Shown: positions 18,086 through 52,587 of the stretch, piece by piece
Position numbering within the stretch: the stretch's first letter is position 1
Layout: each line of letters starts with the position of its first letter
Sequence record: ON286972
Direction: 5' to 3' (one strand)
From: Escherichia phage A4
Length of the DNA: 64,000 nt
Translations under genes and position numbers: made by a program
Notes under the pieces: model-generated
Told to the model about the DNA's origin: nothing
What the model saw: only the letters and a program-made list of their open reading frames with translations
The model's database searches: none

Positions 18086-18090
18086 ATAGT

Positions 18091-18118: not shown

Positions 18119-18150
18119 ACTTACATCAACCACTGATAAGGAAACATAAA

Positions 18151-18426: not shown

Positions 18427-18513
18427 GTATTGACAAAGTATCTTAGTACTGTATAATAGTTTACATCAAGGCGGGGAAATGGTTCCCCTCCTAACTAAAA
18501 GAGAGAAATTAAA

Positions 18514-18696
18514 ATGGCTAAGTGCACTATCTGTAAGAAAGAAATCGTATTAGTTCCAAGTGCCCGTGAACGTGCCGCTCGGTTCGGTGGCAAAGCGTCA
18601 GACTATACAAAAATGTTTACTGCCCATGCAGATTGCCAGGTAGCAAAACGTTCACAAGAAAGCGTAGAATTAATGCGTAAACTTTCCAAAAAATAA
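18514..18696 (+). CDS. small Cys-containing protein, possible zinc ribbon
   Basis: MAKCTICKK...HADCQ; own promoter and GGCGGGGAAATGGTTCCCC hairpin upstream. Confidence 0.65.
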   Translation: MAKCTICKKEIVLVPSARERAARFGGKASDYTKMFTAHADCQVAKRSQESVELMRKLSKK

Positions 18697-18784
18697 GTAT
18701 TGACAAAGTATCTTAGTACTGTATAATAGTTTACATCGAGTGAGGGGAAACGGTTCCCCTCCTAACAAAGAGAGAGAAATAAAA

Positions 18785-19108
18785 ATGGCTATGATCCTTA
18801 CCCAGAAAGTAGAACTGAAAATTGTAACCTCCTTTGACATTAAAGTTAATCGGTGGACTGATTCACACGGCAATACTTACCACTCTTGCTACGTGTCTGC
18901 TTTGATTGGTGATCGCTGGGAGGATTTAGGACATGAAACCTTTACTTACGGTTACGGCACACAAGGCGAATACACGGGCTTGGAGATCATTAAAGAAACG
19001 GTTATAGGTTTCAACCCGAAAGAAAAAGTTATTCATCAAATAGAAAAAGAGATCAACAAAGAAATAACAGTTCGCTACAACGATGTAAAACGTAAGAAAG
19101 ATATGTAA
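18785..19108 (+). CDS. hypothetical protein, paralog of gene at 12938
   Basis: ATG 18785; shares GNTY, YGYG and terminal DVKRKKD with 12938..13282. Confidence 0.65.
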   Translation: MAMILTQKVELKIVTSFDIKVNRWTDSHGNTYHSCYVSALIGDRWEDLGHETFTYGYGTQGEYTGLEIIKETVIGFNPKEKVIHQIEKEINKEITVRYNDVKRKKDM

Positions 19109-19130
19109 TAGAATCCATTTAAAGTACTAT

Positions 19131-19159
19131 TTGACATTGCCCAGATAGTACTTTATAAT
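19131..19159 (+). promoter_or_regulatory. class B promoter
   Basis: AGTACTAT-TTGACA 19131-19136, 17 bp, TATAAT 19154-19159; the paralogous site near 7176 has a 13-bp spacer. Confidence 0.5.
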
Positions 19160-19203
19160 AGACTCTCGCTTGTAGTACTAACTTAACTAATAGGATGTAT
19201 ACC

Positions 19204-19599
19204 ATGATTACTAAATTCTACGCTACCCGTGAAGCTGCCCGTATTGTTGCACGCGAGGAAGGAGCAGCATTTAAAGACATGGGCACGACCGCACCGAAAG
19301 GTCAACGCTGGGCCGTACAGTTCAAAGAAATCTCTGATATTGTGAATTCACCTGAGCCAGTACTGACAGCAGCAGAACAGAAGAAAGCTGATGAACTGTC
19401 AGCAGTACTTAACGCTCAAGATGAATTTATCGCTGGTTCTGATATTAAAGTACAGGTAAATTCGAATGCATGGACTCACGCGGATCACCTGGCTAACCTG
19501 AAGCGTCCAAGTGAACTGATTCGCAACAAACGAGAGATCCGTCATGACCGCAAGGGAAACCGTGTTACCGTATACAGTAAACGCCGCCAGGTTATCTAA
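19204..19599 (+). CDS. hypothetical protein, paralog of gene at 7237
   Basis: MITKFYATREAARIVAREEGAAFKDMG...HDRKGNRVTVYS. Confidence 0.65.
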   Translation: MITKFYATREAARIVAREEGAAFKDMGTTAPKGQRWAVQFKEISDIVNSPEPVLTAAEQKKADELSAVLNAQDEFIAGSDIKVQVNSNAWTHADHLANLKRPSELIRNKREIRHDRKGNRVTVYSKRRQVI

Positions 19600-19621
19600 T
19601 AACTTGCAGTACTAACAACAC

Positions 19622-19646
19622 GGCGGGATCAGTTCCCGCCTTTTTT
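19622..19646 (+). terminator. rho-independent terminator
   Basis: Stem GGCGGGA/TCCCGCC, loop TCAGT, then TTTTTT. Confidence 0.7.
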
Positions 19647-19661
19647 ATAGGATAAACTAAA

Positions 19662-19916
19662 ATGATTAAGGTACAACTATCTAAAGATAATATCTTGCGG
19701 GTACACTATAAAGCCCCACAGAGAATCATCACAAAGGCCGTACAGCTTGCTAATGAGTTTATTAATGGTAATCTATTACCGAGGAAGTTAAGCAACGGAA
19801 AACTGCGTGTAATCGACGTGGACACCAACAACAGAATAGTAATCGAGAATACCGGAAAGATAAACCTATATGAACACCAACAATATAATAAGAAAATAAA
19901 ACTAATATCACGTTGA
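19662..19916 (+). CDS. hypothetical protein
   Basis: 84-aa ORF; SD TAGGA. Confidence 0.65.
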   Translation: MIKVQLSKDNILRVHYKAPQRIITKAVQLANEFINGNLLPRKLSNGKLRVIDVDTNNRIVIENTGKINLYEHQQYNKKIKLISR

Positions 19917-19970
19917 CAGTACTCAAATGTTTTAGTACTATGTATCTATACCAACACGGGGAGTAACAAA

Positions 19971-20189
19971 ATGAATTTATCTAAAGTCGAAAAGAAAACT
20001 ATTGATGTAGCTATCCAACATGGTTACACCTTTCGTAATGATTCACATTTTACCAATTTTCAACAAGGCCAACGAACTATTAAAAAACTAATTGACAAAG
20101 GTTTATTAGTTAAAGTAGATAACGGTAACGGCGTGGAGTATCAGCCAACACAAGACGCATTATCTTTAAAGAAATATGCAATTATCTAA
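19971..20189 (+). CDS. hypothetical protein
   Basis: 72-aa ORF; TTGACAGTACT promoter element and SD GGGGAG upstream. Confidence 0.65.
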   Translation: MNLSKVEKKTIDVAIQHGYTFRNDSHFTNFQQGQRTIKKLIDKGLLVKVDNGNGVEYQPTQDALSLKKYAII

Positions 20190-20254
20190 TTGACAGTACT
20201 CAAATGTTTTAGTACTATATGTACATACCAACACGGAATAACTGGAGAAACAAA

Positions 20255-20482
20255 ATGATTAATATCTTAGAACGCATCAAAGAAACTACTACGCTGGTGG
20301 ATCTACTCAATGTACTGACTTTTAAAGTAACTCGGTTTAGTACTCCTGAATTTATCAACCTCATTGATAGTAAAGGTGAATACCGCATCACTATTGAAAA
20401 TGGTCGTGCTAATGTATTCAGTACTAAATCAGGTAAAACCGCAATTCATTCAGTAATTGCAAATAAAACTGTTGCAATCTAA
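20255..20482 (+). CDS. hypothetical protein
   Basis: ATG 20255 after TGGAGAAA SD; upstream region duplicates that of 19971. Confidence 0.6.
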   Translation: MINILERIKETTTLVDLLNVLTFKVTRFSTPEFINLIDSKGEYRITIENGRANVFSTKSGKTAIHSVIANKTVAI

Positions 20483-20551
20483 TTAGTACTAACATATAAT
20501 AGTCACATCAAGGCAGGGAATACCTCCCTGCTATCTTAAAGAGTAAATGCA

Positions 20552-21136
20552 ATGCGTAATTATACTAAATTCATCCGTACACTGGGAGAAATGGAAACTA
20601 ACAAAGAGATCCTTACAGCTTGTCGGTTGGCTGGTCTGGAGATCATCGGGGCCGGATCATCCCGTATCGTATTCGCTTTAAATGATCGGTTAGTGATTAA
20701 GGTCGCTAATTGTGACGCTGGCGTAGAACAAAATGAAACAGAATGTAAGGTATGGAATTTTTTAGATTATGACCGCCCTCACCTTAAACAGTACTTTGCA
20801 AAGGTGCATATGCATTTATGCGATCCTGATAATATGTTTATCGTTATGGATCGGTTGAGTACTGCAAGTAAAGGCAGTGTAAAGCACGTAAACGCGTGCA
20901 ATGAATTAAAGTACAATATTAAACGTAATGCCATTGAACGCCAGCACCGCTTTGCTGATGCACTACAACACGTTGATGATACATTATCAACACTAACGAT
21001 AAGAGATATCAGAAAACAGAATATCGGCCAGGATCGTAATGGCCTTATTAAAGTACTTGATTACGGTTTAACCCGCAATATCTGGAATCAGTACTATAAA
21101 AAGCGTGATGTAGAAGCAAGTAAGGTAACACGATAA
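20552..21136 (+). CDS. putative protein kinase-like protein (minimal kinase fold)
   Basis: IGAGSSRIVF (Gly loop), VIKV (Lys), DIRKQN (catalytic-loop-like), DYG (DFG-like) in kinase order. Confidence 0.45.
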   Translation: MRNYTKFIRTLGEMETNKEILTACRLAGLEIIGAGSSRIVFALNDRLVIKVANCDAGVEQNETECKVWNFLDYDRPHLKQYFAKVHMHLCDPDNMFIVMDRLSTASKGSVKHVNACNELKYNIKRNAIERQHRFADALQHVDDTLSTLTIRDIRKQNIGQDRNGLIKVLDYGLTRNIWNQYYKKRDVEASKVTR

Positions 21137-21145
21137 AAAAGATTA

Positions 21146-21231
21146 AAAAAGGGATTGACTCCGGTCAGTCCCTTTGCTATTATATATTCATTGAGAGATA
21201 ACTCACTGACCCATAGGGTGCGGAAGTGTAT
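21146..21231 (+). repeat. composite hairpin/promoter/conserved-box module, copy 3
   Basis: Hairpin GGGATTGACTCCGGTCAGTCCC 21151-21172, TATTAT, box CCCATAGGGTGCGGAAGTGTATC. Confidence 0.55.
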
Positions 21232-21359
21232 CTATTATATAAGTATTCAGTACTGAAAACTATTTGATAAAAAGTACTTGCATTGTACTTAGAATCAAGT
21301 ATAATGTTTTATATCGAGAGGGGGAAATGGTTCTCCCTGGTACATTAAGGAATAAAATC

Positions 21360-21581
21360 ATGACTACAATGACTTGCATTCACGCTTCAAACCTGCTTAA
21401 TGATGCGGCCTTTAATGTTGATTCAGAATATCAATGTTATCGGGATGAAAATAAAAAAGTTTTTGTAGTTGATAATAATGGTTTCCATATTGAATTACAA
21501 TCCGGTTTCACTGGTGTTGATGGTAAATCAGTGTGGGGCGTACAGGATGATAAAGGCACATATCATTTTAAACGTAATTAA
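21360..21581 (+). CDS. hypothetical protein
   Basis: ATG 21360 after TAAGGAATAAA; class A promoter and hairpin upstream. Confidence 0.65.
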   Translation: MTTMTCIHASNLLNDAAFNVDSEYQCYRDENKKVFVVDNNGFHIELQSGFTGVDGKSVWGVQDDKGTYHFKRN

Positions 21582-21667
21582 GTATTGACAAAGTATATCA
21601 TCAGTACTGTATAATAGTTTACATCAAGGGGAGAATAGTTCTCCCCAATACAATAAGGAATAAAATC

Positions 21668-22075
21668 ATGTCTACTACTACTAATCTCGCTCGGAACATC
21701 ACTAACGATAAAAATCATGCTGCAATGGTTGTAGCTTACATTGAAGCTATGCAATTCAGTACTGTACATAATGATAACGGCGATTACCTGGAAGATTATG
21801 AGTTATCTGATGAAGCACGTCAAGCGGCGGTGATTGCATGTTCTCGCTTCATTGAGAAACACGGTAATGATCTGGAAGTAGTTCGCGGTATGTTTATTGA
21901 TTACGGTTATGAGCAAGCTGGTCATGATCTGTTCCTTACCCGCGAAGGTCACGGAACTGGTTTTTGGGATCGTGGTTTAGGTCACTATGGCGATGTATTC
22001 ACGAAGTACTGCGAAGAAATCAACGTTTGCGATCCCTATGTAGGCGATGATAACTTAATCTATATGGGCGAATAA
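21668..22075 (+). CDS. hypothetical protein
   Basis: 135-aa ORF; promoter and GGGGAGAATAGTTCTCCCC hairpin upstream. Confidence 0.7.
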   Translation: MSTTTNLARNITNDKNHAAMVVAYIEAMQFSTVHNDNGDYLEDYELSDEARQAAVIACSRFIEKHGNDLEVVRGMFIDYGYEQAGHDLFLTREGHGTGFWDRGLGHYGDVFTKYCEEINVCDPYVGDDNLIYMGE

Positions 22076-22164
22076 AAGTATTTGACAAAGTATATCAGTA
22101 CTGTATAATAGTTTACATCAAGGGGAGAATAGTTCTCCCCACACCAATAAAAGGAAACAAAATT

Positions 22165-22437
22165 ATGTCCAGCTACTCCGCTACTATGATCATTAAAGAT
22201 ATGAACGGTAATCCTACTTCTGCTGGTGGATCATTTGGAAACATTAATTTAGATGGTCGGTTATCCATGCAATCAGCCATCGATGCAGCGAAAGAAGTTT
22301 TTAAGAATGAATGTACTGTTAGTAAGCTGGATTATATGGGATTCGCTATCGAGAAAACTAATCGTTTTGTGAACTACAAAAATCCACTGATGATTGATAC
22401 TAACCTGAAAGCTAACGAAGTGGGGTACTTATTATGA
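22165..22437 (+). CDS. hypothetical protein
   Basis: 90-aa ORF; SD AAAGGAAA. Confidence 0.7.
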   Translation: MSSYSATMIIKDMNGNPTSAGGSFGNINLDGRLSMQSAIDAAKEVFKNECTVSKLDYMGFAIEKTNRFVNYKNPLMIDTNLKANEVGYLL

Positions 22438-22625
22438 CAGTAGAAGAAGTTAAAAAAGTACTGGCAGTACTACGCTATCATAATCATTGCAAGGTGAAGA
22501 ATGATCCTGATTATGTTGATTCATCCCTGGAGGAAGACACATTAAACGCAATAAGCCATATGCAAACATTAGCAAAGCGTATGACCGAAAAGAATAGACC
22601 GGACTATATCGGAAATAAAATTTAA
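22434..22625 (+). CDS. hypothetical protein
   Basis: ATGA overlap with upstream gene; 63 aa. Confidence 0.6.
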   Translation: MTVEEVKKVLAVLRYHNHCKVKNDPDYVDSSLEEDTLNAISHMQTLAKRMTEKNRPDYIGNKI

Positions 22626-22711
22626 AAAGTACTTGCATTGTAGTTAGATTAACGTATAATGTTTTACATAGAGCGGGGGAATAGTTCTCCCGCCAGTCCA
22701 GGAGATACACC

Positions 22712-22975
22712 ATGAACACTATCGAAATCACTATCAATGCACACGTATACGACAACGTAGCACTGCAAACTACTATGACCGCTAATGATACCAGTACTTT
22801 GCGGAATACTGTTATTAGTGCCGTATGTGCTGCAATCGGTGATGTCGCCCTGGAAAATGCAAAACACGTAAACGATGGTTTCACTATGTGCAAACGTGAT
22901 AACGCAAAACATATCATCGTGGAAGGTTACGGCGGTGTAGAATTTAATGTTTATATGAAAAAAGTACTTGCATAA
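22712..22975 (+). CDS. hypothetical protein
   Basis: 87-aa ORF; promoter and GCGGGGGAATAGTTCTCCCGC hairpin upstream. Confidence 0.7.
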   Translation: MNTIEITINAHVYDNVALQTTMTANDTSTLRNTVISAVCAAIGDVALENAKHVNDGFTMCKRDNAKHIIVEGYGGVEFNVYMKKVLA

Positions 22976-23042
22976 TAACTAAAACAAAGTATAATGTTTT
23001 GCATAGGGGGAGATATCCTCCCCCACTAAAAGGAGTAATAAA

Positions 23043-23267
23043 ATGGCTAACTTTGATGAACTGATGCGGGAAGTAGCTAACCTGGCAGAAGAGAAGAAAT
23101 CATTCGATTCTATCTATAACACCGCTCACCGTGATTCAGTACTGGCATGTAACCAGGATCAAAAAGATGAACTAATCGCCACCTATCATGAAGCATGGAA
23201 GTACTACCGACAATGGGAGAAAGAAGAAAGAGAGTCTACCATTGACGGCCTCAATAATCTAATCTAA
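23043..23267 (+). CDS. hypothetical protein
   Basis: 74-aa ORF; hairpin GGGGGAGATATCCTCCCCC upstream. Confidence 0.7.
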   Translation: MANFDELMREVANLAEEKKSFDSIYNTAHRDSVLACNQDQKDELIATYHEAWKYYRQWEKEERESTIDGLNNLI

Positions 23268-23343
23268 AAGTTTTATTTCAGTACTATTGACATAGCTTGA
23301 TAGTACTGATGTAATAACTTTACTAACTACAAGGGGAAACATA

Positions 23344-23601
23344 ATGGATCAATTCACACAATATCGGGTAAATCCTCAAGCTATGGCCTACGTAGAAGAC
23401 CATAAAACGTTACCAGTACTGCAACCAGTTAAAGGCCATATCTATCGTGCAATGTCGTGGAGTGCGGCCCAGGATGGCTATAAAACCGTAGCCGTGGGTA
23501 TGTATTGCGGTAATGGTGAATGGTTTGATCCAAATAATCCGGTAGCCATTGACAGTACTGAAAAAATGAAATGGGCCGACTACATCGAAGATATTTCATA
23601 A
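23344..23601 (+). CDS. hypothetical protein
   Basis: 85-aa ORF; class B-type promoter at 23287-23315. Confidence 0.65.
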   Translation: MDQFTQYRVNPQAMAYVEDHKTLPVLQPVKGHIYRAMSWSAAQDGYKTVAVGMYCGNGEWFDPNNPVAIDSTEKMKWADYIEDIS

Positions 23602-23691
23602 AAACTATTTGACAGTACTACAAGATAATGTATAATGTTTTACATAGAGCGGGGGAATAGTTCTCCCGCCAATAGTTTGGAGTTAAACATT

Positions 23692-25479: not shown

Positions 25480-26298
25480 ATGCAGATTACCCGTTGTGGA
25501 AGAACCTTCCACTACATGGAGCCTAAAGATGTACAGATGATATACACTGTTCATAATAAGAAAACTCCAAACTTTTATATAAATGAAATTAAGAATAAAC
25601 ATAAAGATTTAAAAATATACGGTTATAACATAACATCATCTAATGAGTTCAACGGTAACAAAACACTTGTTCTTTATGAATTAAAAGGTGTATTACTTAC
25701 AGCTTCAGCAAATCAATTGATGAAGTCAAAGGATATATCAAGAATTCGTTACCGAGATGATGATATCGTTTACGTCACTAATTGTATATTGTTAAACGAA
25801 GGAAAAAATATTAGGTGTACTGGTTTTACACCAGGAAAACAAACTAAAAATACAACATATGGAAATCATGAATGTCATTTGGTGTGTGATGATTGTAATA
25901 GGGAATGGTCAAAACTTATTACAAATATTGTATCAGATGACAGAGAAACCTTTTGTTATTGTGCACAAAGAATATCTTTTAAGGGTAAATGTGCAGCTTA
26001 CTTTTATGTTAATAAATTCACTTATAATGGTGAAACTGTTTACAAATATGGAATAGCTCACAACACAATCAAAAGACGCACACTGTTCAAAAACAATAAT
26101 GGATTAGACTCTGAAGAAATCATAGCTGTACTGTTTGAAAACTCATTGGAAGCTGCTGATCTTGAAGACATGTTGAAGTATACTAATTTAATTAATCATA
26201 TGCGTCATGTTAAAATAAAAGATGGCTGTACTGAACTCACCGATGAAGCTGGACTAAAATTTATTATGGAAGAACTTACTTACATGGGTAAGCTTTAA
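25480..26298 (+). CDS. hypothetical protein with Cys/His cluster and possible GIY-YIG-like segment
   Basis: 272 aa; HECHLVCDDC...FCYC cluster; FYVNK...YKYGIAHNTIKRR loosely resembles GIY-(10-11)-YIG...R. Confidence 0.6.
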   Translation: MQITRCGRTFHYMEPKDVQMIYTVHNKKTPNFYINEIKNKHKDLKIYGYNITSSNEFNGNKTLVLYELKGVLLTASANQLMKSKDISRIRYRDDDIVYVTNCILLNEGKNIRCTGFTPGKQTKNTTYGNHECHLVCDDCNREWSKLITNIVSDDRETFCYCAQRISFKGKCAAYFYVNKFTYNGETVYKYGIAHNTIKRRTLFKNNNGLDSEEIIAVLFENSLEAADLEDMLKYTNLINHMRHVKIKDGCTELTDEAGLKFIMEELTYMGKL

Positions 26299-26562: not shown

Positions 26563-26759
26563 AAATGCGTACATTAACCCAAGATGAATATCATCATATA
26601 CTACGTAAAAACACGGCAAGGATTTACCAAAGCAATGTGCATTTAGAAAGAGTTGAGTTGTACCTGTTGATTACGATGGGAACCAACTATCAGGAAGTGT
26701 GGGTAACTCACTATTTGGAATCTTTGAAAGCTGACATACGAGCGAGGTGCAAACATTGA
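26559..26759 (+). CDS. hypothetical small protein, family B
   Basis: ATGA overlap; motif TMGTNYQEVW. Confidence 0.65.
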   Translation: MKMRTLTQDEYHHILRKNTARIYQSNVHLERVELYLLITMGTNYQEVWVTHYLESLKADIRARCKH

Positions 26760-26965
26760 AAATCATAACACAGACACAAGCATTTGGTCGTATATTGAAA
26801 TACCTTGATGACATGATAGATATACATAGTGACCTCCCTAAAACTGTAATCTACGCCAAAAGAGCAGAATATCGCATGATGGCTGTACTGAACACAAACT
26901 TTCAGGAAGAGTATGTAAATGATTGGATTGGATTTTTAATTGAAGATATAAAGAGTAAACTATGA
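26756..26965 (+). CDS. hypothetical small protein, family B
   Basis: Probable TTG start (GTG at 26747 possible); motif VLNTNFQEEY. Confidence 0.5.
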   Translation: MKIITQTQAFGRILKYLDDMIDIHSDLPKTVIYAKRAEYRMMAVLNTNFQEEYVNDWIGFLIEDIKSKL

Positions 26966-27174
26966 TTATATTAACACCAGAGCAATATAGGAAACGTTAC
27001 AATTCTAAGCAGATTGAAATCTTGCTGATATATGCAGACAGGGATGATGTATACTTATCAAAAGTTATGGAAAAAGAATTACTTATGGGTGTCTTCTTAG
27101 GAACTGACCACCAGAAATCTTATGTCCAAGAGTATCTAATAGCTCTTGAGAAATACATCAGGAGTAAACTATGA
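26962..27174 (+). CDS. hypothetical small protein, family B
   Basis: ATGA overlap; motif FLGTDHQKSY. Confidence 0.65.
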   Translation: MIILTPEQYRKRYNSKQIEILLIYADRDDVYLSKVMEKELLMGVFLGTDHQKSYVQEYLIALEKYIRSKL

Positions 27175-27395
27175 ACTGCATTAATAACTTTGAATACGAG
27201 GCTCGCTCAAGGTGTGCATCTCAAAAAGAGAACCACATTTACTTCACTATGATGTACTTATCTTGGAATGAAATTGAAGAAATGGTTGCTGAAGTATGGC
27301 TGTTTGAATTCATGGGGACGCAGTATCAGAATAGGTTTGTGGGTGAGTATCTTAATGTTCTTATGAAACATATAGAAAGAAAGGGAATGAACTAA
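27171..27395 (+). CDS. hypothetical small protein, family B
   Basis: ATGA overlap; motif FMGTQYQNRF. Confidence 0.65.
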   Translation: MNCINNFEYEARSRCASQKENHIYFTMMYLSWNEIEEMVAEVWLFEFMGTQYQNRFVGEYLNVLMKHIERKGMN

Positions 27396-27646
27396 TGAAA
27401 GTATTATCAAGCACTGAGTATCAATCTGCCCTATTCTCTTTACTAAACACCCTTCGCAAGAACAATGAACTTTATCCTTCCCCTGAGAATGATGTAGTTA
27501 ATGGTGACGTGTTTCTTCTTAAATTCATTGGAACTAATAAACAAGATACCTTTACTGATCGTTATATCAATGCACTAAGAAACCTTGTAGCGTATAAAAC
27601 CCGCCAGGCCAAAAGAGAATGGAAGAGACAATGCGATCCAGAATAA
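27395..27646 (+). CDS. hypothetical small protein, family B
   Basis: motif FIGTNKQDTF. Confidence 0.65.
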   Translation: MKVLSSTEYQSALFSLLNTLRKNNELYPSPENDVVNGDVFLLKFIGTNKQDTFTDRYINALRNLVAYKTRQAKREWKRQCDPE

Positions 27647-27879
27647 ATCACATTATGTACGTTAAACTATTTCAGAAACTAATCCACAAACACTATGATA
27701 CAGTATCTGATAAACTCACTAATGATATCAGCAGACTTATACACTGTGAAGCAGAGATGCTTGTACTGATGACGGGAGACGATACACAAACAATCTCTAA
27801 GGCAATAGAGAACTATCTGGAAGCATATCAACAACATATAAGAACGGAAGTCTGGAGACGAGAGAATGAAAATCCTTAG
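27631..27879 (+). CDS. hypothetical small protein, divergent family B member
   Basis: ATG 27631 after GGAAGAG; motif degraded to LMTGDDTQ. Confidence 0.5.
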   Translation: MRSRINHIMYVKLFQKLIHKHYDTVSDKLTNDISRLIHCEAEMLVLMTGDDTQTISKAIENYLEAYQQHIRTEVWRRENENP

Positions 27880-28081
27880 TGGGTATGAATATTACAGTCT
27901 GTTGCGAACTATACAAGCAAAAGTTTCTAGTATTTCTTTAGACAAATCTATTGCACAAGTGGACAAATGTGTTATAATAACTGAAATGAAGCTATCTATC
28001 TTCATTGGGACAAACTATCAAAGCATCTACACTGACGCATGGTTAGCAAGTCTACGTAACAAGGTGATATCCAGAGAATGA
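27866..28081 (+). CDS. hypothetical small protein, family B
   Basis: motif FIGTNYQSIY. Confidence 0.65.
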   Translation: MKILSGYEYYSLLRTIQAKVSSISLDKSIAQVDKCVIITEMKLSIFIGTNYQSIYTDAWLASLRNKVISRE

Positions 28082-28296
28082 AAAAATTACAAGGTTTTGA
28101 ATATATTAAGCTTCTTCAAACCTGTGAAATCCAAAGAAGAAAGATTCAAAAGGCTAAAAGAATTACCGCAGAACGAAAGTTTACACTGATAACTGAAGTC
28201 TATGTATTAAAACTCTTAGGCACAAACCATCAACACAAGTATGTAGACCTATGGATTGATGCACTCCAGAAAGAGGTTAAAAGTAAATGCAAATGA
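28078..28296 (+). CDS. hypothetical small protein, family B
   Basis: ATGA overlap; motif LLGTNHQHKY. Confidence 0.65.
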   Translation: MKKLQGFEYIKLLQTCEIQRRKIQKAKRITAERKFTLITEVYVLKLLGTNHQHKYVDLWIDALQKEVKSKCK

Positions 28297-28511
28297 TTAA
28301 TTTAAGTAAAGATGAATATTATGTACGTCTTGCAAAAACTTATTCATTACGCAAGGCCATTTATGAAAGTCACATTATTGAACAATCAAATAAGTGGATT
28401 GTAGTAAATGAGATCAAGATGCTTTCAGTCTTAGGAACAAACTATCAAGCGAGTGCTGTACTGAAGGTCATTAATGCACTTCAAAATGAGGTCCAAAGTA
28501 AATGCAAATGA
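28293..28511 (+). CDS. hypothetical small protein, family B
   Basis: ATGA overlap (alternative ATG 28287); motif VLGTNYQASA. Confidence 0.6.
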   Translation: MINLSKDEYYVRLAKTYSLRKAIYESHIIEQSNKWIVVNEIKMLSVLGTNYQASAVLKVINALQNEVQSKCK

Positions 28512-28765
28512 TTAATTTAAGTAAAGATGAATATAACGAGCGACTAGCAAAAATCTCACCTAAACGTAATGCAATCTATCACAGCCAAGAAATTCAACAC
28601 AGTAAGAAGATGATTATGTTTCGTGAGTTAAAGATGGGTGTCTTCTTAGGAACAAACTATCAAGAGACAGAAGTAAATCGCGTCATAACCGAGTTACTCA
28701 TGGAAATCAGAGGTAAGCTGTACTTTCATCAAATGACCCAACCACTGAGGTGTAATGAGAAATGA
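28508..28765 (+). CDS. hypothetical small protein, family B
   Basis: Start junction identical to that of gene 28293 (recent duplication); motif FLGTNYQETE. Confidence 0.6.
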   Translation: MINLSKDEYNERLAKISPKRNAIYHSQEIQHSKKMIMFRELKMGVFLGTNYQETEVNRVITELLMEIRGKLYFHQMTQPLRCNEK

Positions 28766-28998
28766 ATAAAATTAATAACATCAACTTAGCAGAAAGATTT
28801 GATAGAATTGGGGAAGCTCTGAGAAGATACGATAAAGCATATGGTCATTTAAGCTTTACCATAGAAACGAGATATGCCCTTGAAGAAGAGTTTAAAATGC
28901 ATAGTCTCTTAGGCACACAGTATCAAAAACAATATGTTCAAAAATGGATTGAATGTTTAATCCAAACAATTCATGTGAGGAACATAAAATGCAAATGA
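28762..28998 (+). CDS. hypothetical small protein, family B
   Basis: ATGA overlap; motif LLGTQYQKQY. Confidence 0.65.
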   Translation: MNKINNINLAERFDRIGEALRRYDKAYGHLSFTIETRYALEEEFKMHSLLGTQYQKQYVQKWIECLIQTIHVRNIKCK

Positions 28999-29243
28999 TA
29001 TACTTAACAGACGATGAAATAAAAGAAAGAATAATTAAATCCAGAAAACATACAAATCAACTTCCAAAAGACCCAAACCAAACCCCTGCTGCAAGGAGTG
29101 CAGAAGTATTATATCAACAACTCCTGTACTTTCTTGGAACTGATAGACAGGATTATTATGTTCGATCGATTCTTAGATATCTTAAAATGACTATTCAGGA
29201 AAAGATACATGACCAAATATATAAAAATCTTAACAGTCAATGA
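28995..29243 (+). CDS. hypothetical small protein, family B
   Basis: ATGA overlap (alternative ATG 28989); motif FLGTDRQDYY. Confidence 0.6.
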   Translation: MIYLTDDEIKERIIKSRKHTNQLPKDPNQTPAARSAEVLYQQLLYFLGTDRQDYYVRSILRYLKMTIQEKIHDQIYKNLNSQ

Positions 29244-29460
29244 ATATCATAAGATTATCATGAAGACTAATAGTGCAATTTCTAAAAAATCAAACCCCAA
29301 GTACATTCTGGAACACACATTTGAAGAACGACAATTAGCTTTAGTTGAAGCAAAACTTCTTGCACTATTAGGGACTAACTATCAAGACGAGTACGTAAGA
29401 AAACTAATATACCTTTTAACTAAACACATCAGGAAAAGAAATGCTGCACTTGACAAATGA
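29209..29460 (+). CDS. hypothetical small protein, family B
   Basis: motif LLGTNYQDEY. Confidence 0.6.
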   Translation: MTKYIKILTVNEYHKIIMKTNSAISKKSNPKYILEHTFEERQLALVEAKLLALLGTNYQDEYVRKLIYLLTKHIRKRNAALDK

Positions 29461-29671
29461 CGAATACGGTGTTATCATCCTTGATGTTATCAATAAAGAA
29501 TACCATAGGAAACAACGATACGCTTGTTATGAAGATAAACAGCTTTCTATAGCTGAACAACAATTAGTTCATTTATTAGGAACAAACTATCAAGAACAAT
29601 GCACTGAACGTTACCTGTACCTACTGTCGAGGAAAGCAAAAAGAGATTATGAAAATTTTAAACGAAGGTGA
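29441..29671 (+). CDS. hypothetical small protein, family B
   Basis: motif LLGTNYQEQC. Confidence 0.6.
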   Translation: MLHLTNDEYGVIILDVINKEYHRKQRYACYEDKQLSIAEQQLVHLLGTNYQEQCTERYLYLLSRKAKRDYENFKRR

Positions 29672-29864
29672 TGAAGTAATATTACTTATAGAGAATTCAA
29701 GTAAATTCTTAAACATATCACTGTCTGATATAGATGAAGATGACAAAGAAGTACTGAGAGCAGATTTAAGAGTACTGTTACATCTCGGAACAAACCTACA
29801 AGAACAATTTGTTGAGGACTACATCGATGAACTTAAAGAATCAGTACTGAGAAGATGTAAATGA
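29649..29864 (+). CDS. hypothetical small protein, family B
   Basis: motif HLGTNLQEQF. Confidence 0.6.
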   Translation: MKILNEGDEVILLIENSSKFLNISLSDIDEDDKEVLRADLRVLLHLGTNLQEQFVEDYIDELKESVLRRCK

Positions 29865-30103
29865 AAATGAAAATCCTTTCAAGCACAGAATACAACCAAC
29901 TATTAAGTAGTTTAATTCCAAAGTTGCATCGTAGCTGGTCAGCAGAATTATCACAGGATGAAAAAAATATTCTAATAAGTGAAATCTATGTTCTAGCTAC
30001 TATAGGAACTAACTATCAAGAACACATCATAGTGGATTATATTAATACACTCAAAAGGGTAATACAATTAAAATGCACAGACAGCACATACACAAACCCC
30101 TAG
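29861..30103 (+). CDS. hypothetical small protein, family B
   Basis: ATGA overlap; motif TIGTNYQEHI. Confidence 0.65.
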   Translation: MKMKILSSTEYNQLLSSLIPKLHRSWSAELSQDEKNILISEIYVLATIGTNYQEHIIVDYINTLKRVIQLKCTDSTYTNP

Positions 30104-30303
30104 GAACAGCAGAATACATTGAACTAATGGCAGCAAACTTCTCATCCTTTCAGAAACTGAGGCAAGAATCAAATAATGATTTAGAATATCATATCAAAAG
30201 TTCAGATTTAAGATTGTTACTCACTCTAGGAACAGACAGTCAGTACAAATTCGTACAGGAGCATATTAGAGCACTTTTAAATGGCATCAGGAATAAACTA
30301 TGA
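30073..30303 (+). CDS. hypothetical small protein, family B
   Basis: motif TLGTDSQYKF. Confidence 0.6.
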   Translation: MHRQHIHKPLGTAEYIELMAANFSSFQKLRQESNNDLEYHIKSSDLRLLLTLGTDSQYKFVQEHIRALLNGIRNKL

Positions 30304-30515
30304 AGGAAATATCAAACCAAGAGTACTTAGAACTATTCAGAAAAAATAAGAACGAATATATGGCACTTGATACAAGAACTGATATAGGGGAACTTGAAAA
30401 AAATCTTTTGCGTTCAGAGATGATAGTACTGACACTCTTAGGAACACAGCACCAAGAGAGAACTGTTAATTCACACATAGAAATACTTAAGAAGCTTATA
30501 CAGGAAAAGATATGA
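30300..30515 (+). CDS. hypothetical small protein, family B
   Basis: ATGA overlap; motif LLGTQHQERT. Confidence 0.65.
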   Translation: MKEISNQEYLELFRKNKNEYMALDTRTDIGELEKNLLRSEMIVLTLLGTQHQERTVNSHIEILKKLIQEKI

Positions 30516-30733
30516 GAATCATAACACAACAAGATATTCTTAAGTTCACAAGGGTTCATGCATCTGAATTTGATGCTATATTATCAAAAAGTTACAACAA
30601 CCCTTATACAGAAGATGTACACTACAGTGAATTATGGGTGTATATACTTTTAGGTACAGATCATCAAGAGCAAGCAGTACAGAAGTATTTGTTAGCTTTA
30701 CGTGATGCTACTGCTAATGGAGTAGGTGTTTAA
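30512..30733 (+). CDS. hypothetical small protein, family B
   Basis: ATGA overlap; motif LLGTDHQEQA. Confidence 0.65.
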   Translation: MRIITQQDILKFTRVHASEFDAILSKSYNNPYTEDVHYSELWVYILLGTDHQEQAVQKYLLALRDATANGVGV

Positions 30734-30735
30734 AA

Positions 30736-31077
30736 ATGAAAACTAATATTCAACTCAAGGTATACATATCGTATGAAAATATATACATCAAAAGTAGTCT
30801 ATGTAAAGATGTAATGGACTACAAAGGTAAGCCATTCACAGTTACTTACAGTTCTACAGGAGGTTTATATATATCTTTTGCTAATTACGAAAATAATATG
30901 TACGAACACATTGACATTGAAGATTTAAGTACTTTATCAGAAGAGGAATACTTTCAGGAATCATTAGTCTGGGATTTAGAGTTTCCTATGCCATTAGTAC
31001 ATAAAATGATAGTACTAATAAAAGAAACTAAACAGGAGCCTCGTGATAATTATGAAGAACACATTATTGAGTATTAA
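30736..31077 (+). CDS. hypothetical acidic protein, paralog family C
   Basis: motif EEEYFQESLVWD. Confidence 0.65.
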   Translation: MKTNIQLKVYISYENIYIKSSLCKDVMDYKGKPFTVTYSSTGGLYISFANYENNMYEHIDIEDLSTLSEEEYFQESLVWDLEFPMPLVHKMIVLIKETKQEPRDNYEEHIIEY

Positions 31078-31089
31078 GAGTACTGAACC

Positions 31090-31320
31090 ATGAAAAGATT
31101 ATCATTCGAAGAGTACTGCAAGCTTATTAATACTTTACAACCACAAATACAACAAATAAATTCTCTTCCTATACCCCAAGAAGAACGTGCAGTACTGAAA
31201 GATGAGTTAATTTTAAAATGCACAGTAGGTACTAACTATCAAGCTGATAGTGTTCGTTATCTAATTTGGGGTTTAATGTGCATAATAGAGAACAAAGCAG
31301 TTGACAGTACTCTAATGTAG
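31090..31320 (+). CDS. hypothetical small protein, family B
   Basis: motif TVGTNYQADS. Confidence 0.65.
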   Translation: MKRLSFEEYCKLINTLQPQIQQINSLPIPQEERAVLKDELILKCTVGTNYQADSVRYLIWGLMCIIENKAVDSTLM

Positions 31321-31359
31321 TGCTATAGTACTTCTACGTTCTAATATAGGGTACAGATT

Positions 31360-31605
31360 ATGTTAAAATTTTTAAATTTCCTTATCGTCTTGTGTATTGT
31401 TCTTGGGATTGCACCGTTTGTATTAGCGTATCTGGATTCAGATGAAATGCACAAGATGAATTGCACAAAGACAGGACAGAGTAGAAAAGAGACGGTTATG
31501 ATGCCCGTAACGGTTATTGTGAATAATATGCCGATTACGAACATGATTCCTACCCTAACGACAACGTATCAGTACTCTTGCGATGACGGAGAGAGGTGGA
31601 GATGA
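31360..31605 (+). CDS. small predicted membrane protein
   Basis: N-term LKFLNFLIVLCIVLGIAPFVLAYL hydrophobic helix; 81 aa. Confidence 0.55.
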   Translation: MLKFLNFLIVLCIVLGIAPFVLAYLDSDEMHKMNCTKTGQSRKETVMMPVTVIVNNMPITNMIPTLTTTYQYSCDDGERWR

Positions 31606-31931
31606 CACGTAAATTCAATTGTATTGTCAGAGATAAAATCTGTTTCATTGCGTTGTCCAATTTCCAGAGCAATTCTGGGGTTAAGGTATTTGAGTACAAT
31701 AAAGTTGATAATTGTTTCTATTGGGTAGACGGTGTAAAATCCACAGGAAACAAGATTGCAGTACCGAATCTAGTTGATATCTCTGAAGAAGAAGAGTTTC
31801 AGTACAGTTTAGTACATGATGATTCTTTTGGATTTACGTTCAATGAAATGAAGGAAGTACAAAGGCAGATGATATCGTATAGTAATCTTCCAAAGCATTT
31901 CATACAAGATGTGCATAGAATTGTAATATAG
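31596..31931 (+). CDS. hypothetical acidic protein, family C
   Basis: motif EEEEFQYSLVHD. Confidence 0.65.
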   Translation: MEMTRKFNCIVRDKICFIALSNFQSNSGVKVFEYNKVDNCFYWVDGVKSTGNKIAVPNLVDISEEEEFQYSLVHDDSFGFTFNEMKEVQRQMISYSNLPKHFIQDVHRIVI

Positions 31932-31938
31932 GGGATAT

Positions 31939-32274
31939 ATGAAATTCAACATTCACCGAATTAATTCCGGTTGTATATTTGCTTATACGCATGAGAATTA
32001 CAAGAAGTACATGAATCATGAAGTACATTATGTTTTCGAGGACGGTAAAGAATATTTTGCTTATTTGAGTCCCAGGAGTTTAGGTAAGTACGAGTTGCTT
32101 CAGGATCTTTCTCTTATGCAGGAAGATGAATTATTTCAGTACAGTCTAATTCATGACCCTTATATGTTTGATATAGATATTATGTGCAGTTTACAGAAGA
32201 GGATGAAAGAAGTTTGGGATTCGATTAAAAGAGGTGATTGTATAGAATATGATAGTATACAAGAAGATGCCTAA
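31939..32274 (+). CDS. hypothetical acidic protein, family C
   Basis: motif EDELFQYSLIHD. Confidence 0.65.
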   Translation: MKFNIHRINSGCIFAYTHENYKKYMNHEVHYVFEDGKEYFAYLSPRSLGKYELLQDLSLMQEDELFQYSLIHDPYMFDIDIMCSLQKRMKEVWDSIKRGDCIEYDSIQEDA

Positions 32275-32467
32275 CGGATATGAATTGAAGTACAGACATT
32301 TTATTCGAAATGTAGAATCAGATCCTTTTAATGTTAAAATGGCAGAGTTCGATTTATTATTTTATCTAGGAACGAGAGCACAGCCACAATTCGTTGATGC
32401 ATACATAAGGGCTTTACGAACAGAGATAGTATGCACACCAAAGGAGTCTAAATGTACAAAAATGTAA
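32249..32467 (+). CDS. hypothetical small protein, family B
   Basis: motif YLGTRAQPQF. Confidence 0.6.
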   Translation: MIVYKKMPNGYELKYRHFIRNVESDPFNVKMAEFDLLFYLGTRAQPQFVDAYIRALRTEIVCTPKESKCTKM

Positions 32468-32709
32468 ACCATCATTTGTACGCATCAAAGTACAGGGATT
32501 TTTGTTTACAAGGGGGCGATGAAGATTTTGCTTTGCGATTATCGGAATTTAATATGTTATTTTATCTTGGTACATCAGTACAAGAAGAAATGGTACAGAA
32601 ATTTATCAAGCACCTTGAACGAAAAATTCATACGCAAATTTTGGTTGTTAAGTTACAGAATGAGATAAATGAATACAATGCAGAATCTAACAGTAGTACA
32701 GGATCTTAG
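32452..32709 (+). CDS. hypothetical small protein, family B
   Basis: motif YLGTSVQEEM. Confidence 0.6.
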   Translation: MYKNVNHHLYASKYRDFCLQGGDEDFALRLSEFNMLFYLGTSVQEEMVQKFIKHLERKIHTQILVVKLQNEINEYNAESNSSTGS

Positions 32710-49321: not shown

Positions 49322-49954
49322 ATGAGTTCAAAAAGAAAACCAATTTCAAAGTACGTTTTTCATCGCCTAGAATATAAGCACTGCATTGCGTATGCACGAG
49401 CCTTAACGGACATATTACCACGTCTGAAAGATGATAAGTTCCTTGAATGTTATGACATGCGTTTTCATAACAATGTTCTTGAGTACATAGAATCAGATGA
49501 TAGTGAGTTGAATGAAGTATGGCTTGATTTCAGTCCTAGTGGTTTAGATAAAAATAGAGTTGGTAATTTGGGACCATTTTTTACGCACTGCTTGAACTTC
49601 GATTTGTCAGATAAAACATTAGTACTGGACAGTAATGAGGTACTTAGATTAAACCTCAATGATATGGATTATTCAGAAGAATCATTCTTTCAATATAGTT
49701 TATTATATGAACCGAATGATTTATTATATACTATTGTTTTCCCATATCTACATGAGCACCTTAAAGGTACTAAAGTTCAAAGAGCAGACATTGCCTTTAG
49801 TTTAGTAAATTTATTCAAGTACAGTGATGTGTTCAAAGAAATATGTATTGAAGGTGGTTACTTCGATGACCTTGCTGATTTGAATAACATGGCGTTTGAA
49901 AATGATAATTATTTTAACGATACCTATATAGGCGGTTCGAGGATAATGAAATGA
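49322..49954 (+). CDS. hypothetical acidic protein, family C
   Basis: motif SEESFFQYSLLYEPN. Confidence 0.65.
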   Translation: MSSKRKPISKYVFHRLEYKHCIAYARALTDILPRLKDDKFLECYDMRFHNNVLEYIESDDSELNEVWLDFSPSGLDKNRVGNLGPFFTHCLNFDLSDKTLVLDSNEVLRLNLNDMDYSEESFFQYSLLYEPNDLLYTIVFPYLHEHLKGTKVQRADIAFSLVNLFKYSDVFKEICIEGGYFDDLADLNNMAFENDNYFNDTYIGGSRIMK

Positions 49955-50502
49955 GTCTCCCATTAACAATAAACCCAGTACTAAAAGATCTATCTAAAGT
50001 TATTATGAACTTTTTTCCTATTGTACTACAAGATATAAAACCTATATCAAATCTTGGTTCATGTTATATTCGACACAGTAATAATAAAAACGGTTCTATA
50101 GGTACTTTGTACATTAGTGATAGTTCATTGTTTCTTTTGCACCCTGAGTTATCAGATGAAGAAATACAAGATGGATGCTCGGAGGCACAGAATCGTGTAC
50201 TCACACGTTATCCATATGTGTACATAAGCAGCATTAAACATAAAAATCTTGCTAATAACTTTTGCCAATGCAATCACGGTGATAACTTAATAGATTTAAA
50301 TGTTGACGATGGGGTGCTTTTCCAGTACAGTACTCTATATGATCAGTTAACAATGGATATCATTGAGTTGGATAAGTTAGTGCGTGATTACATCCCTGAT
50401 GGTTTCTATCTTACAATGGATCTTAATGTACTGAATTCCGTAATGGAACAAGGCACTCTACCAAACATTCTGAGAGACTTACGAGCATTTAAAAGACCCT
50501 GA
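49951..50502 (+). CDS. hypothetical protein, family C
   Basis: ATGA overlap; motif DGVLFQYSTLYDQL. Confidence 0.65.
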   Translation: MSLPLTINPVLKDLSKVIMNFFPIVLQDIKPISNLGSCYIRHSNNKNGSIGTLYISDSSLFLLHPELSDEEIQDGCSEAQNRVLTRYPYVYISSIKHKNLANNFCQCNHGDNLIDLNVDDGVLFQYSTLYDQLTMDIIELDKLVRDYIPDGFYLTMDLNVLNSVMEQGTLPNILRDLRAFKRP

Positions 50503-50515
50503 TGGGTCTTTTTTC
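50494..50515 (+). terminator. rho-independent terminator
   Basis: Stem AGACCC/GGGTCT, loop TGAT, then TTTTT. Confidence 0.65.
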
Positions 50516-50524: not shown

Positions 50525-50553
50525 TTGACATTAGTAATGTAGAATGTTAGAAT
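50525..50553 (+). promoter_or_regulatory. sigma70-like promoter upstream of the chemoreceptor-like gene pair
   Basis: TTGACA 50525-50530, 17 bp, TAGAAT 50548-50553. Confidence 0.55.
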
Positions 50554-50584: not shown

Positions 50585-51133
50585 ATGGACAGCATTGTAA
50601 ATATTATTGAATGCATGATTTATATTTTTAAAAACAGTCCTGATAATGAGACTGTTAATTTTGAGTTAGGTGAATTAAATATCAACCCAAAAGAATCTCC
50701 ATCAGTATATTCTAATATTACATTGTTCATTAGTGGTTTAGGTTATGTCGTAAAGATCATTAATGCAACACAACGTAGACAAGAATACAAGATGGAAATT
50801 CTACGCGGAGATAGTGAAATTCGTCTATATAATGTATCACGCTACACTAAGATACTGGTAAAACATTCTTATGAAGATGACGAGAAGTTAGCTGTAGCTA
50901 AAATTGATTCAAACACTTTCAAAGAACAAATGTTCATGGCTGCTATGTCATATGATCAATTAACTTATAATAAGCTAGAAATGGGTTATAAATTACTTAG
51001 GTTATTAGAAGATCATTATGAAATTACAATTATGGACAAATTGCTTACCAAAAGCCAAGAGGAACTAGAGAAAATGCATTTGTTATTAAAAAAATATATT
51101 GATGATAATTTAAATTATGGAGAAGTACGTTGA
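50585..51133 (+). CDS. hypothetical protein, divergent family C member
   Basis: 182 aa; motif degraded to [15 protein letters not shown]. Confidence 0.6.
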
Positions 51134-52542
51134 AAAGTAATTTAGAAAATATACGCAAAAAAGCCGATAATTTAGTACTATGTTGTATAGGGGCTTTATT
51201 TGCTGTTACTTTAGTTTCCGGTGTTGTTCATGGTAGTTTTATTATTGCACTTATCGGTGCAGTTTTATTATTAGTAATGCTAACTCCTTTACTATTTGTT
51301 GAAAGTAATGCATTCACTCGAACGTTATTAAGTATAAATGTGATGTGCTGGAGTGCGTTACTAATACATCTTGGCTTAGGGATGGTGGAATGGCACTTTA
51401 CAGTTTTTGTCTTTTTAAGTTTATTGATTGTATGGCGTGACTGGCGTTGTGTATTAGCAGGTTCAGTACTGATAGCAATACATCATTTATTATTTGGATT
51501 GTTGCAGGGTGCTGGAATTCCAATATTATTCGTGTTTTCTTTTCACCATATTTCGTTATGGCACATTATAGAGCACGCAATATATGTAGTAGTACAGGCA
51601 ATAGTTCTGATGTACGTTGCGTACATTATGGAGAAAGATGCAAATGAAGCAGATGAAATTCAACGAATTGCAAGATCAGTGAATTCTGAAGACGGCAATA
51701 TTACTTTAGAAATACAAAATAATCATTTCAACTCCGAATTTGCACAGACTTTTAGTAAAACAATATCAGCTATGCGTGAGGCAATTGAACAAGTACAAAT
51801 TACAGTTCAGTCAATGAAAAGCAACTCCTATCATCTCGAAAGTAAAAGTAATGATTTAGCTTTCAGAACTGAAACACAAGGACAGGCACTCACTCAAATC
51901 GCTGCTGCTATGGAAGAATTAAGTGCTACATCTGCAAATACATCTGATAACTCCAATACTGCAAAAAGTATGGTTAAAACTACAAAAGAATCCAGTACTA
52001 ATGCAATTGAAAGTATTAATAATTGCAAAGAGCAGATGAATAGAATTAAGGAAGATTCTAATGCTATAGTTGCTATACTCAAAAATATAGAAACTATTGC
52101 TTTCCAGACTAATATTCTTTCTTTAAATGCAAGCATTGAGGCTGCTAAAGCGGGTGAACATGGACGTGGATTCTCTGTTGTTGCACAGGAAGTTCGTAAC
52201 TTAGCAATGAAATGTGATACATGTAGTAAAGAAATTAAAGAAATCGTTGATAACTCCGTAAAAAACAACAACCAAGGAATTGAACAAATCAACGAGACAG
52301 CAAGTGATATTGATTCTATTGTAAAAAATGTTGATTCTCTCTTGCAGTTCATTGATGATTTAGCTATAATGGCTGAACAACAAAGTATTGCAATCCTTCA
52401 GGTCACTGAGAGTGTTAATATGATGGACCGTTCAGTACAGCAAAATGCGGAGCATGTCAAGGACACAATGCTGATGGTAGACAATCAACAGTCTGAAGTA
52501 CATGCTTTACAAAAAGCCACTTCGATTTTTAACGTGAAATAA
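51130..52542 (+). CDS. methyl-accepting chemotaxis protein-like polytopic membrane protein
   Basis: About 6 hydrophobic helices N-terminally; C-terminal [37 protein letters not shown] (nt ~52096-52206) matches the MCP signalling-domain core; TTG start with GGAGA SD. Confidence 0.8.
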
Positions 52543-52549
52543 TTTTAAA

Positions 52550-52576
52550 GCCAGGGTATTGACTCTGGCTTTTTTC
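52550..52576 (+). terminator. terminator hairpin overlapping next promoter
   Basis: Stem GCCAGGG/CTCTGGC then TTTTTT; TTGACT 52559-52564 lies in the hairpin. Confidence 0.55.
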
Positions 52577-52587
52577 TTTGCTATTAT
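52559..52587 (+). promoter_or_regulatory. sigma70-like promoter embedded in terminator hairpin
   Basis: TTGACT 52559-52564, 17 bp, TATTAT 52582-52587; same architecture as the four composite modules. Confidence 0.5.

Follow-up and report, generated by a model that had tools for sequence, protein, structure and literature searches.

We analysed 64,000 nucleotides of Escherichia phage A4 (sequence record ON286972; hereafter, the window), a piece of an Asteriusvirus-like jumbo coliphage, and focused on one open reading frame (ORF) that encodes a methyl-accepting chemotaxis protein (MCP). An earlier note, made from the sequence alone, had pointed out this ORF, and it is present as given there; it lies on the plus strand. 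The product is identical to GenBank USL83455.1, which bears the label 'methyl-accepting chemotaxis protein [Escherichia phage A4]'; the MCP annotation itself, an automatic one, is thus already in GenBank. The features of the locus are listed below.

50491-50512, plus strand: intrinsic-terminator-like hairpin (9-bp stem, 4 GC pairs, then a T-run) that ends the preceding unit
50525-50553, plus strand: sigma-70-type promoter of a two-gene unit (TTGACA-17-TAGAAT, extended -10 TG, 11/12 matches)
50585-51133, plus strand: first gene of the unit (182 amino acids), a divergent 'family C' member, phrog_36809 (unknown function)
51119-51122, plus strand: Shine-Dalgarno GGAG, read from the sequence, 7 nt 5' of the TTG start
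51130-52542, plus strand: MCP-type chemoreceptor gene (470 amino acids, TTG start, TAA stop)
51130-51645, plus strand: predicted cytoplasmic N-tail and six-transmembrane (6TM) sensor module (residues 1-172)
51646-51813, plus strand: HAMP-like helix-connector-helix in the AlphaFold2 model (residues 173-228)
51814-52539, plus strand: signalling domain of methylation helices, flexible bundle and hairpin tip (residues 229-470; PF00015)
51913-51918, plus strand: methylation-consensus pair E262-E263 (A-A-A-M-E262-E263-L-S-A-T), equivalent to Tsr E310-Q311
52093-52215, plus strand: hairpin tip (residues 322-362), where Tsr contacts CheA/CheW and forms its trimers
52547-52578, plus strand: intrinsic terminator ending the unit (strong hairpin at 52547-52572 and a T-run)

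Architecture and transcription of the receptor gene

The assignment is carried by the C-terminal half of the protein. Pfam PF00015 (MCPsignal) matched residues 281-434 (E=4.2e-37; 128.1 bits, the cut-off being 34.6), a strong result for the domain search that the earlier note had proposed, and solved structures of E. coli Tsr were matched as well (E ~3e-36). The segment that the note had likened to the MCP signalling core lies inside the PF00015 match, and the tip is identical to Tsr 370-410 at 30 of 41 positions (73%). The trimer contacts F373, I377, L380, N381, E385, F396, V398 and E402 and the E391-equivalent turn residue are all identical to those of Tsr, and V384I and R388K are conservative replacements. 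PHROGs placed the protein in phrog_8572, whose function is unknown there (E=8.6e-52). NCBIfam returned signalling-domain matches only, far under the equivalog cut-offs, and none for the 6TM module; the viral structures of BFVD returned generic coiled coils only, and an IMG/VR scan with the full protein gave no match.

The signalling domain has the same length as that of Tsr. HMMER aligned residues 195-469 with Tsr 243-517 over 275 residues without interruption, and residues 246-469 with residues 1-224 of 1QU7, again with no gap. By these ungapped alignments, the heptad count that had been proposed as a check comes out equal to that of Tsr and puts the domain in the 36H length class, that of Tsr/Tar/Trg/Tap/Aer. 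A length class equal to that of Tsr is needed for any tapping of host CheA/CheW. The full-length AlphaFold2 model (24-sequence alignment; mean predicted local distance difference test score, pLDDT, of 85) has an antiparallel hairpin with predicted helices at 203-340 and 342-465 (pLDDT ~85-90).

The N-terminal half is predicted to be a membrane module. AlphaFold2 placed six helices at residues 4-33, 37-56, 61-81, 86-102, 105-127 and 143-184, and hydropathy was high in residues 11-169 only, in agreement with the about six hydrophobic helices counted in the earlier note. When modelled alone, this domain reached a mean pLDDT of 91.9 and a predicted template modelling (pTM) score of 0.87. In the predicted topology (N-in, C-in) the loops on the periplasmic side are 3, 4 and 15 residues long, and its lysines and arginines fall in predicted cytoplasmic loops or on the cytoplasmic side only. 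With 15 residues in the longest periplasmic loop, there is no periplasmic ligand-binding domain, as had been stated before. Receptors of class IIIm have their sensor inside the membrane and respond to a membrane-associated stimulus (PMC8396549), and the phage MCP has the topology of this class, with six predicted helices, short periplasmic loops, and a cytoplasmic linker followed by the signalling domain. The TTG start is kept in five alleles of the gene, and residues 5-20 can be aligned with bacterial homologues.

The 6TM module is one of a large family. Residues 1-172 had no match in Pfam or NCBIfam, and a Foldseek search of the N-domain model against the PDB returned nothing at E<1. Run against 1.84 billion representatives, a 6TM profile retrieved 5,717 clusters at E<=1e-3, and 3,171 when the threshold was set to E<=1e-10. 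The full-length matches were mostly ~500 amino acids long; MCPsignal was present in 10/10 of the matches examined, most of which also had HAMP, HAMP_2 or PAS. Among 145 members compared, 138-144 have the conserved residue at each of six positions (E87, H89, H118, H119, Q126 and H149) and 132 have it at a seventh, R103; the phage copy retains all seven. By the predicted topology, the first six lie in the periplasm-facing half of transmembrane helices (TM) 4, 5 and 6, and this His/Glu/Gln cluster suggests a bound metal, haem or a proton-sensitive network. The literature on the 6TM-MCP family yielded no ligand for any member.

Membrane module and signalling domain are joined by a linker of HAMP size and position. 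In the model, the TM6 helix runs to residue 184, followed by a strand at 190-192 and the next helix from 203, and the connector has a G-x-[IL]-x-L motif. The full-length alignments traverse the HAMP domains of Tsr (212-265) and of the Af1503 fusion 3ZX6. The earlier note could identify no HAMP region, which stands as far as the Pfam HAMP model is concerned, but a helix-connector-helix that aligns with both of these HAMP domains does occupy the HAMP position. From the model, a HAMP-like linker is probably present, and we do not claim membership of the HAMP family for it.

The gene is the second of a two-gene unit. Its start overlaps the TGA stop of the divergent family C gene by 4 nt (TTGA, 51130-51133), and a hairpin with a T-run follows its own stop, both as previously described. 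The promoter at 50525-50553, which had been called the gene's own, is a near-consensus site, but it lies 5' of the gene at 50585-51133; the unit is therefore bicistronic and the promoter common to both genes. The hairpin at 50491-50512 directly follows the stop of the gene at 49951-50502. Strict TTGACA-N16-18-TANAAT sites number 16 in the window against 0.55 expected, 15/16 of them on the plus strand, and promoter-like matches overall showed no excess (18 vs 19.8 in shuffles); the sequence clearly points to the use of these strict promoters by the phage. A series of near-identical strong sigma-70-type promoters runs over 15829-23636, with further copies at 10963, 41902, 45462 and 58466, and many of them have a common core, AGTACTGTATAAT, after TTGACA. 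The series resembles a family of early phage promoters set at intervals through the small-gene region. Downstream of the unit, the mechanical ORF list starts the next gene at a TTG at 52559, within the terminator hairpin; its real start is almost certainly the ATG at 52616, which has GAGGA upstream and agrees with the gene call in locus L002.

Residency, origin and surroundings of the gene

The gene, which encodes an MCP-type protein, is a genuine resident of the phage. Its GC content (0.345) and GC content at third codon positions (0.255) are in line with those of the neighbouring phage genes, and its codon adaptation index is 0.697, compared with 0.711+-0.029 for the surrounding array genes. 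Five independent sources carry the same gene with the same neighbours: the window, Logan contig SRR30543657, assemblies GCA_036253495.1 (352-kb contig) and GCA_011911785.2 (359-kb contig), and a second Logan run. Further members of the cluster are on contigs of 351.6, 356.9 and 357.8 kb. A chimeric assembly, raised by the earlier note as what could undo its reading, thus finds no sign in composition or codon usage, neither of which breaks at the gene, and independent assemblies carry identical junctions; the synteny check in related phage DNA likewise returned the gene in identical context in at least five independent 350-kb genomes or contigs.

The five alleles differ at 37 segregating nucleotide sites and six variable amino acids, and residues 1-275 are invariant among them. 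The pairwise ratio of nonsynonymous to synonymous polymorphism (pN/pS) was 0.03-0.08 for pairs with protein differences, compared with 0.26 for the pooled neighbour genes. In the first allele pair, 16/21 differences were synonymous (binomial P ~1e-7). The MCP gene is under purifying selection within the phage.

In Escherichia phage BAU.Micro_ELP-22 (hereafter, ELP-22), ELP22_0152 and ELP22_0153, which are orthologous to the genes on either side, lie next to each other; the A4 lineage thus has two additional genes here, the MCP gene and that at 52616. The 182-amino-acid gene at 50585-51133 is 30% identical to ELP22_0152. The annotated syntenic stretch of phage 121Q holds small hypothetical genes only, none of MCP size. 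The gene has the marks of a moron or auxiliary gene, namely cellular homologues, absence from the locus in sibling phages, a promoter and a terminator flanking the unit, and phage-like composition.

No match to the MCP locus was found at the DNA level in 5,426 complete E. coli genomes (megablast), and the only Escherichia proteins among the named relatives are those on phage-sized contigs. On these sequence searches, the E. coli host appears to be without this type of receptor. Several copies of the gene surfaced in assemblies of E. coli isolates.

Among full-length relatives, chromosomal MCPs of Enterobacter, Pseudocitrobacter, Siccibacter and Pantoea come closest (38-40% identity at 99% coverage), followed by those of Cupriavidus and Paraburkholderia (~31% identity). 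Each of the three modules is 35-41% identical to the Enterobacter clade, to which the phage protein is a long-branch sister; the equal identity of the modules and the long branch indicate that the gene came in as a single unit, with long divergence since. The bacterial homologues are bona fide chemotaxis genes in ordinary settings of this kind, downstream of flhA-flhF-fliA, beside cheW and another MCP, or after exbBD; the neighbourhoods of three homologues gave no clue to a ligand. A 361-kb contig (P0002) considered as a further phage-sized carrier was rejected, as it proved to be Enterobacter-like chromosomal DNA, the neighbours being exbBD, metC and yqhD.

The gene lies in a divergent part of the phage genome. 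By megablast, bases 1-25000 of the window are ~90% identical to ELP-22 and its relatives, and the matched parts at 25-44.6 kb (37% of the 25001-50000 query) and at 58.6-64 kb are ~84% and ~79% identical to phage 121Q, respectively. For the stretch at ~44.6-58.6 kb, which holds the MCP gene, megablast against 50,697 phage records returned nothing. Genes syntenic in ELP-22 have 23-42% protein identity at ~44-58.6 kb, and some just past 58.6 kb have 80-90%. Positions 33000-61500 hold ~50 consecutive plus-strand ORFs around the MCP gene, none of which Pfam matched, and an FQxS motif at ~0.6-0.7 of the length was found in 36/52 ORFs at 33-61.5 kb; in the gene at 50585-51133 it is degenerate (FMAAMSY). 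By its sequence, this region is a hypervariable paralog array of unknown function. No match to chemotaxis families was found among the 82 other ORFs of the window.

A second paralog-like array, separate from this later family of 130-215 amino acids, was seen at 26747-32709, where ~25 head-to-tail ORFs of 70-113 amino acids have overlapping starts and stops. A 272-amino-acid ORF at 25480-26298, with a weak PHROG endonuclease match (phrog_681, E=3e-10), sits where the promoter-rich region meets the small-ORF array. The megablast matches of bases 1-25000 include 13 records named 'Campylobacter' phage, which is unexpected for these taxa; these records could be mislabelled or contaminated.

Proposed role and alternatives

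We propose, with moderate confidence, that the gene encodes a working class IIIm chemoreceptor that would signal through host CheA/CheW and that was captured whole by a persistent jumbo coliphage lineage. An A4-like (Asteriusvirus-like) lineage would have captured the whole gene from an enterobacterial-type ancestor, after which it would have been kept by purifying selection. Transcription of the unit by host RNA polymerase would be independent of the flagellar regulon under FliA, the protein would insert in the inner membrane, and its conserved tip would join host receptor trimers and arrays. A stimulus at the membrane or the periplasmic face, for which a metal, the haem or redox state and protons are candidates, would be sensed at E87/H89/H118/H119/Q126/H149 and passed on to host CheA and thus to flagellar rotation. 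Adaptation would be weak and dependent on neighbouring host receptors, because the protein has a single consensus methylation site and no NWETF tether. Infected and often long-lived cells would gain a sensory input that E. coli receptors apparently do not provide.

The biology of the phage is consistent with such a role. In broth, phage A4 leaves its host unlysed, and its infection strategy has been called atypical (PMC9355613). The 'persistent virulent phages' detected in assemblies of E. coli isolates show strong enrichment for Asteriusvirus genomes (bioRxiv 10.1101/2024.12.31.630880). If a phage stays with a swimming host over many generations, it has reason to influence the direction in which this host swims. 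It is possible, if doubtful, that a persistent non-temperate jumbo phage steers its living host in this way, so that infected E. coli would swim by a cue unreadable to uninfected cells. A membrane-redox, metal or pH signal could serve as this cue and tell of a niche good for phage production or for contact with new hosts.

Several findings weigh against a working receptor. The phage protein sits on a long branch with at most 41% identity to any cellular homologue, and its function may have drifted. No MCP-like sequence was found in 35 Asteriusvirus genomes matching the flanks; the gene is confined to the A4 sub-lineage and is therefore dispensable for this type of phage. The proposed timing of expression is taken from the promoter consensus only. 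The linker, besides having no match to Pfam HAMP, retrieved no HAMP structure from the PDB as a linker-only profile. In the signalling domain, one of the five Tsr-equivalent methylation positions fits the consensus, the others being T249, Q256 (preceded by T), D445 and Q454 without consensus context. The NWETF tether is missing, the protein ending ...ATSIFNVK at the equivalent of Tsr 518, and the glycine-hinge positions read A, I and A, the first of which is G in all 23 close homologues. By analogy with Tsr, such a hinge could impair on-off switching.

These traits bear on a first alternative, in which the protein is an array jammer or decoy that enters host arrays by its tip, transmits no stimulus, and fixes or scrambles the kinase output. 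Chemotaxis would then be stopped or the rotation bias locked, which could immobilise the cell or block flagellum-dependent superinfection. We consider this unlikely. The tip is indeed conserved while adaptation features are degraded, the sigma-70-type promoter would uncouple expression from the host flagellar regulon, and, in Tsr, replacements of side chains in the glycine hinge impair chemotaxis and the kinase-OFF state bends there (PMC6606802). A pure jammer would have no use for its sensor, yet residues 1-275 are invariant and the seven family-invariant residues are kept despite ~60% divergence. In addition, methylation sites are likewise reduced and the tether likewise missing in the closest bacterial homologues, and all three hinge glycines are missing in 21/225 homologues of the wider set as well (~9%); the methylation, tether and hinge traits are therefore not phage-specific degradation. 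The phage sequence does have peculiarities: it alone differs at 13 positions common to >=90% of the homologues in the 24-sequence alignment (e.g., G292A and R340K), and the lysine at the R388 position occurs in 0/225 homologues. In Tsr, however, a lysine is the one replacement of R388 for which wild-type-like adaptation has been reported (PMC6681711). A phage-specific locked output from hinge loss and R388K was considered and dropped in view of the 21/225 homologues without these glycines and the benign R388K of Tsr. With the sensor residues kept and the 6TM module invariant in five alleles, a decoy seems less likely than a working sensor.

A role outside chemotaxis, such as polar targeting or scaffolding of phage processes, signalling to a phage-encoded partner, or sensing of the membrane state tied to delayed or no lysis, is quite improbable in our view. 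It would suit a gene lying inside an array of ~50 uncharacterised phage paralogs, with which it is co-transcribed, as well as the atypical infection without lysis in broth noted above (PMC9355613), and since 64 kb of the 355-kb genome were inspected, a partner could be encoded elsewhere. On the other side, the CheA/CheW and trimer-contact parts are the best-conserved parts of the protein, all examined members of the 6TM family are MCPs, and bacterial homologues lie in flagellar or chemotaxis loci; PADLOC defence-system models matched the protein only as coiled-coil noise (DruC, JetC). Finally, a passenger or artefact, i.e., misassembled host DNA or a recent functionless acquisition, is scarcely credible and can be called already refuted: many 'phage' MCP records are host contamination, and most of 52 tblastn matches were fragments of Salmonella, E. 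coli or Listeria, but here the composition and codon usage equal those of the flanking phage genes, the start codon and the stop of the preceding phage gene overlap, the cellular protein nearest to it is only 40% identical, megablast of the complete E. coli genomes gave no match, the junctions are identical in at least five independent assemblies, and pN/pS is low.

The proposed working receptor matters for two reasons. A complete gene under purifying selection that matches the host receptors in length and tip, in a group of phages that stay in living E. coli isolates and do not lyse them quickly, makes the manipulation of host behaviour a directly testable idea; if true, the steering of the host proposed above would amount to virus-directed navigation of a bacterial cell by a virus-encoded receptor. 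The gene also brings to attention a large 6TM sensor family (>3,000 clusters at E<=1e-10) with no Pfam or NCBIfam model, of which the phage copy offers a compact member, compatible with E. coli, for study.

Comparison with known systems

Phages carry metabolic and defence-related host genes. A literature search for a functional study of any phage-encoded chemoreceptor found none, and the paper on phage A4 makes no mention of chemotaxis (PMC9355613). The A4 gene is not the only phage-borne MCP. The jumbo Vibrio phage vB_VmeM-Yong XC31 encodes a complete chemoreceptor with dCache_1, HAMP and MCPsignal (QAX96201.1; 2687-4519 of locus L007), and 'Microcystis phage MaAM05' one with Protoglobin and MCPsignal (WMU93215.1; 2296-3822 of locus L008), both annotated as hypothetical. 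These two, from phages of other hosts, match the A4 protein in the signalling domain only, with 33-37% identity. The MaAM05 gene lies near thiL and ispD, and the provenance of this record is doubtful. An MCP is also listed in Nitrosospira phages (bioRxiv 10.64898/2026.05.02.722434). An 'aerotaxis sensor receptor protein' was noted in an isolate of Escherichia phage P1 (MH445380.1; 3044-4621 of locus L009), and was rejected as a phage gene, as it lies between mobile-element genes, by a DeoR repressor and a beta-lactamase, and is transposon cargo. What is new here are the Tsr-length ungapped signalling domain, the HAMP-like linker, the large unmodelled 6TM family, the residue cluster and the lack of the gene in other Asteriusvirus genomes.

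Other membrane proteins share the 6TM plan. The six-TM anchors of class III adenylyl cyclases (AC9, 6R3Q; AC5, 8SL3; Rv1625c, 7YZI) and of the diguanylate cyclase ImcA (8WCN) likewise combine a 6TM bundle with a cytoplasmic signalling output, and the adenylyl cyclase anchors have been proposed to act as receptors (PMC4821796). However, they are 10-13% identical to the phage module, Foldseek returned nothing, and the output domain is different; the likeness may be that of a generic six-helix bundle and not of common descent. HtrVIII of Halobacterium salinarum is a six-TM aerotaxis transducer for which haem binding has been proposed (Brooun et al. 1998, as cited in PMC13401364). In a comparison of architecture alone, it has the same plan of six TM helices followed by an MCP domain, with no extracellular domain and with conserved membrane histidines that suggest a cofactor, but it is archaeal and of another length class than the phage MCP. 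Haem binding by the phage protein, by analogy, is pure conjecture.

The signalling end resembles that of the host receptors. Compared with E. coli Tsr, Tar and Aer (1QU7, 3ZX6 and 6S1K), the phage hairpin has equal length, with the trimer contacts and 73% identity of the tip kept, and with respect to Tsr the methylation site at E310/Q311 and a helix-connector-helix at the HAMP position are retained. The protein shares the lack of NWETF with Aer, Trg and Tap, and the lack of a periplasmic domain with Aer. It differs from the E. coli receptors in having six TM helices instead of two, and neither a periplasmic four-helix bundle nor a PAS domain; relative to Tsr, it has lost 4/5 methylation positions, has the A/I/A hinge and a lysine at R388, and is ~34% identical overall. 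E. coli receptor genes belong to the FliA regulon, whereas the phage-encoded gene has a sigma-70-type promoter.

The closest likeness is to the chromosomal 6TM-MCPs, e.g., that of Enterobacter soli (P0005). These have the same architecture from end to end, share E87, H89, F90, H118, H119, Q126 and H149 with the phage protein, and likewise have reduced methylation sites and no tether. The phage copy is set apart from them by an N terminus 13 residues shorter and by a gene of 34.5% GC.

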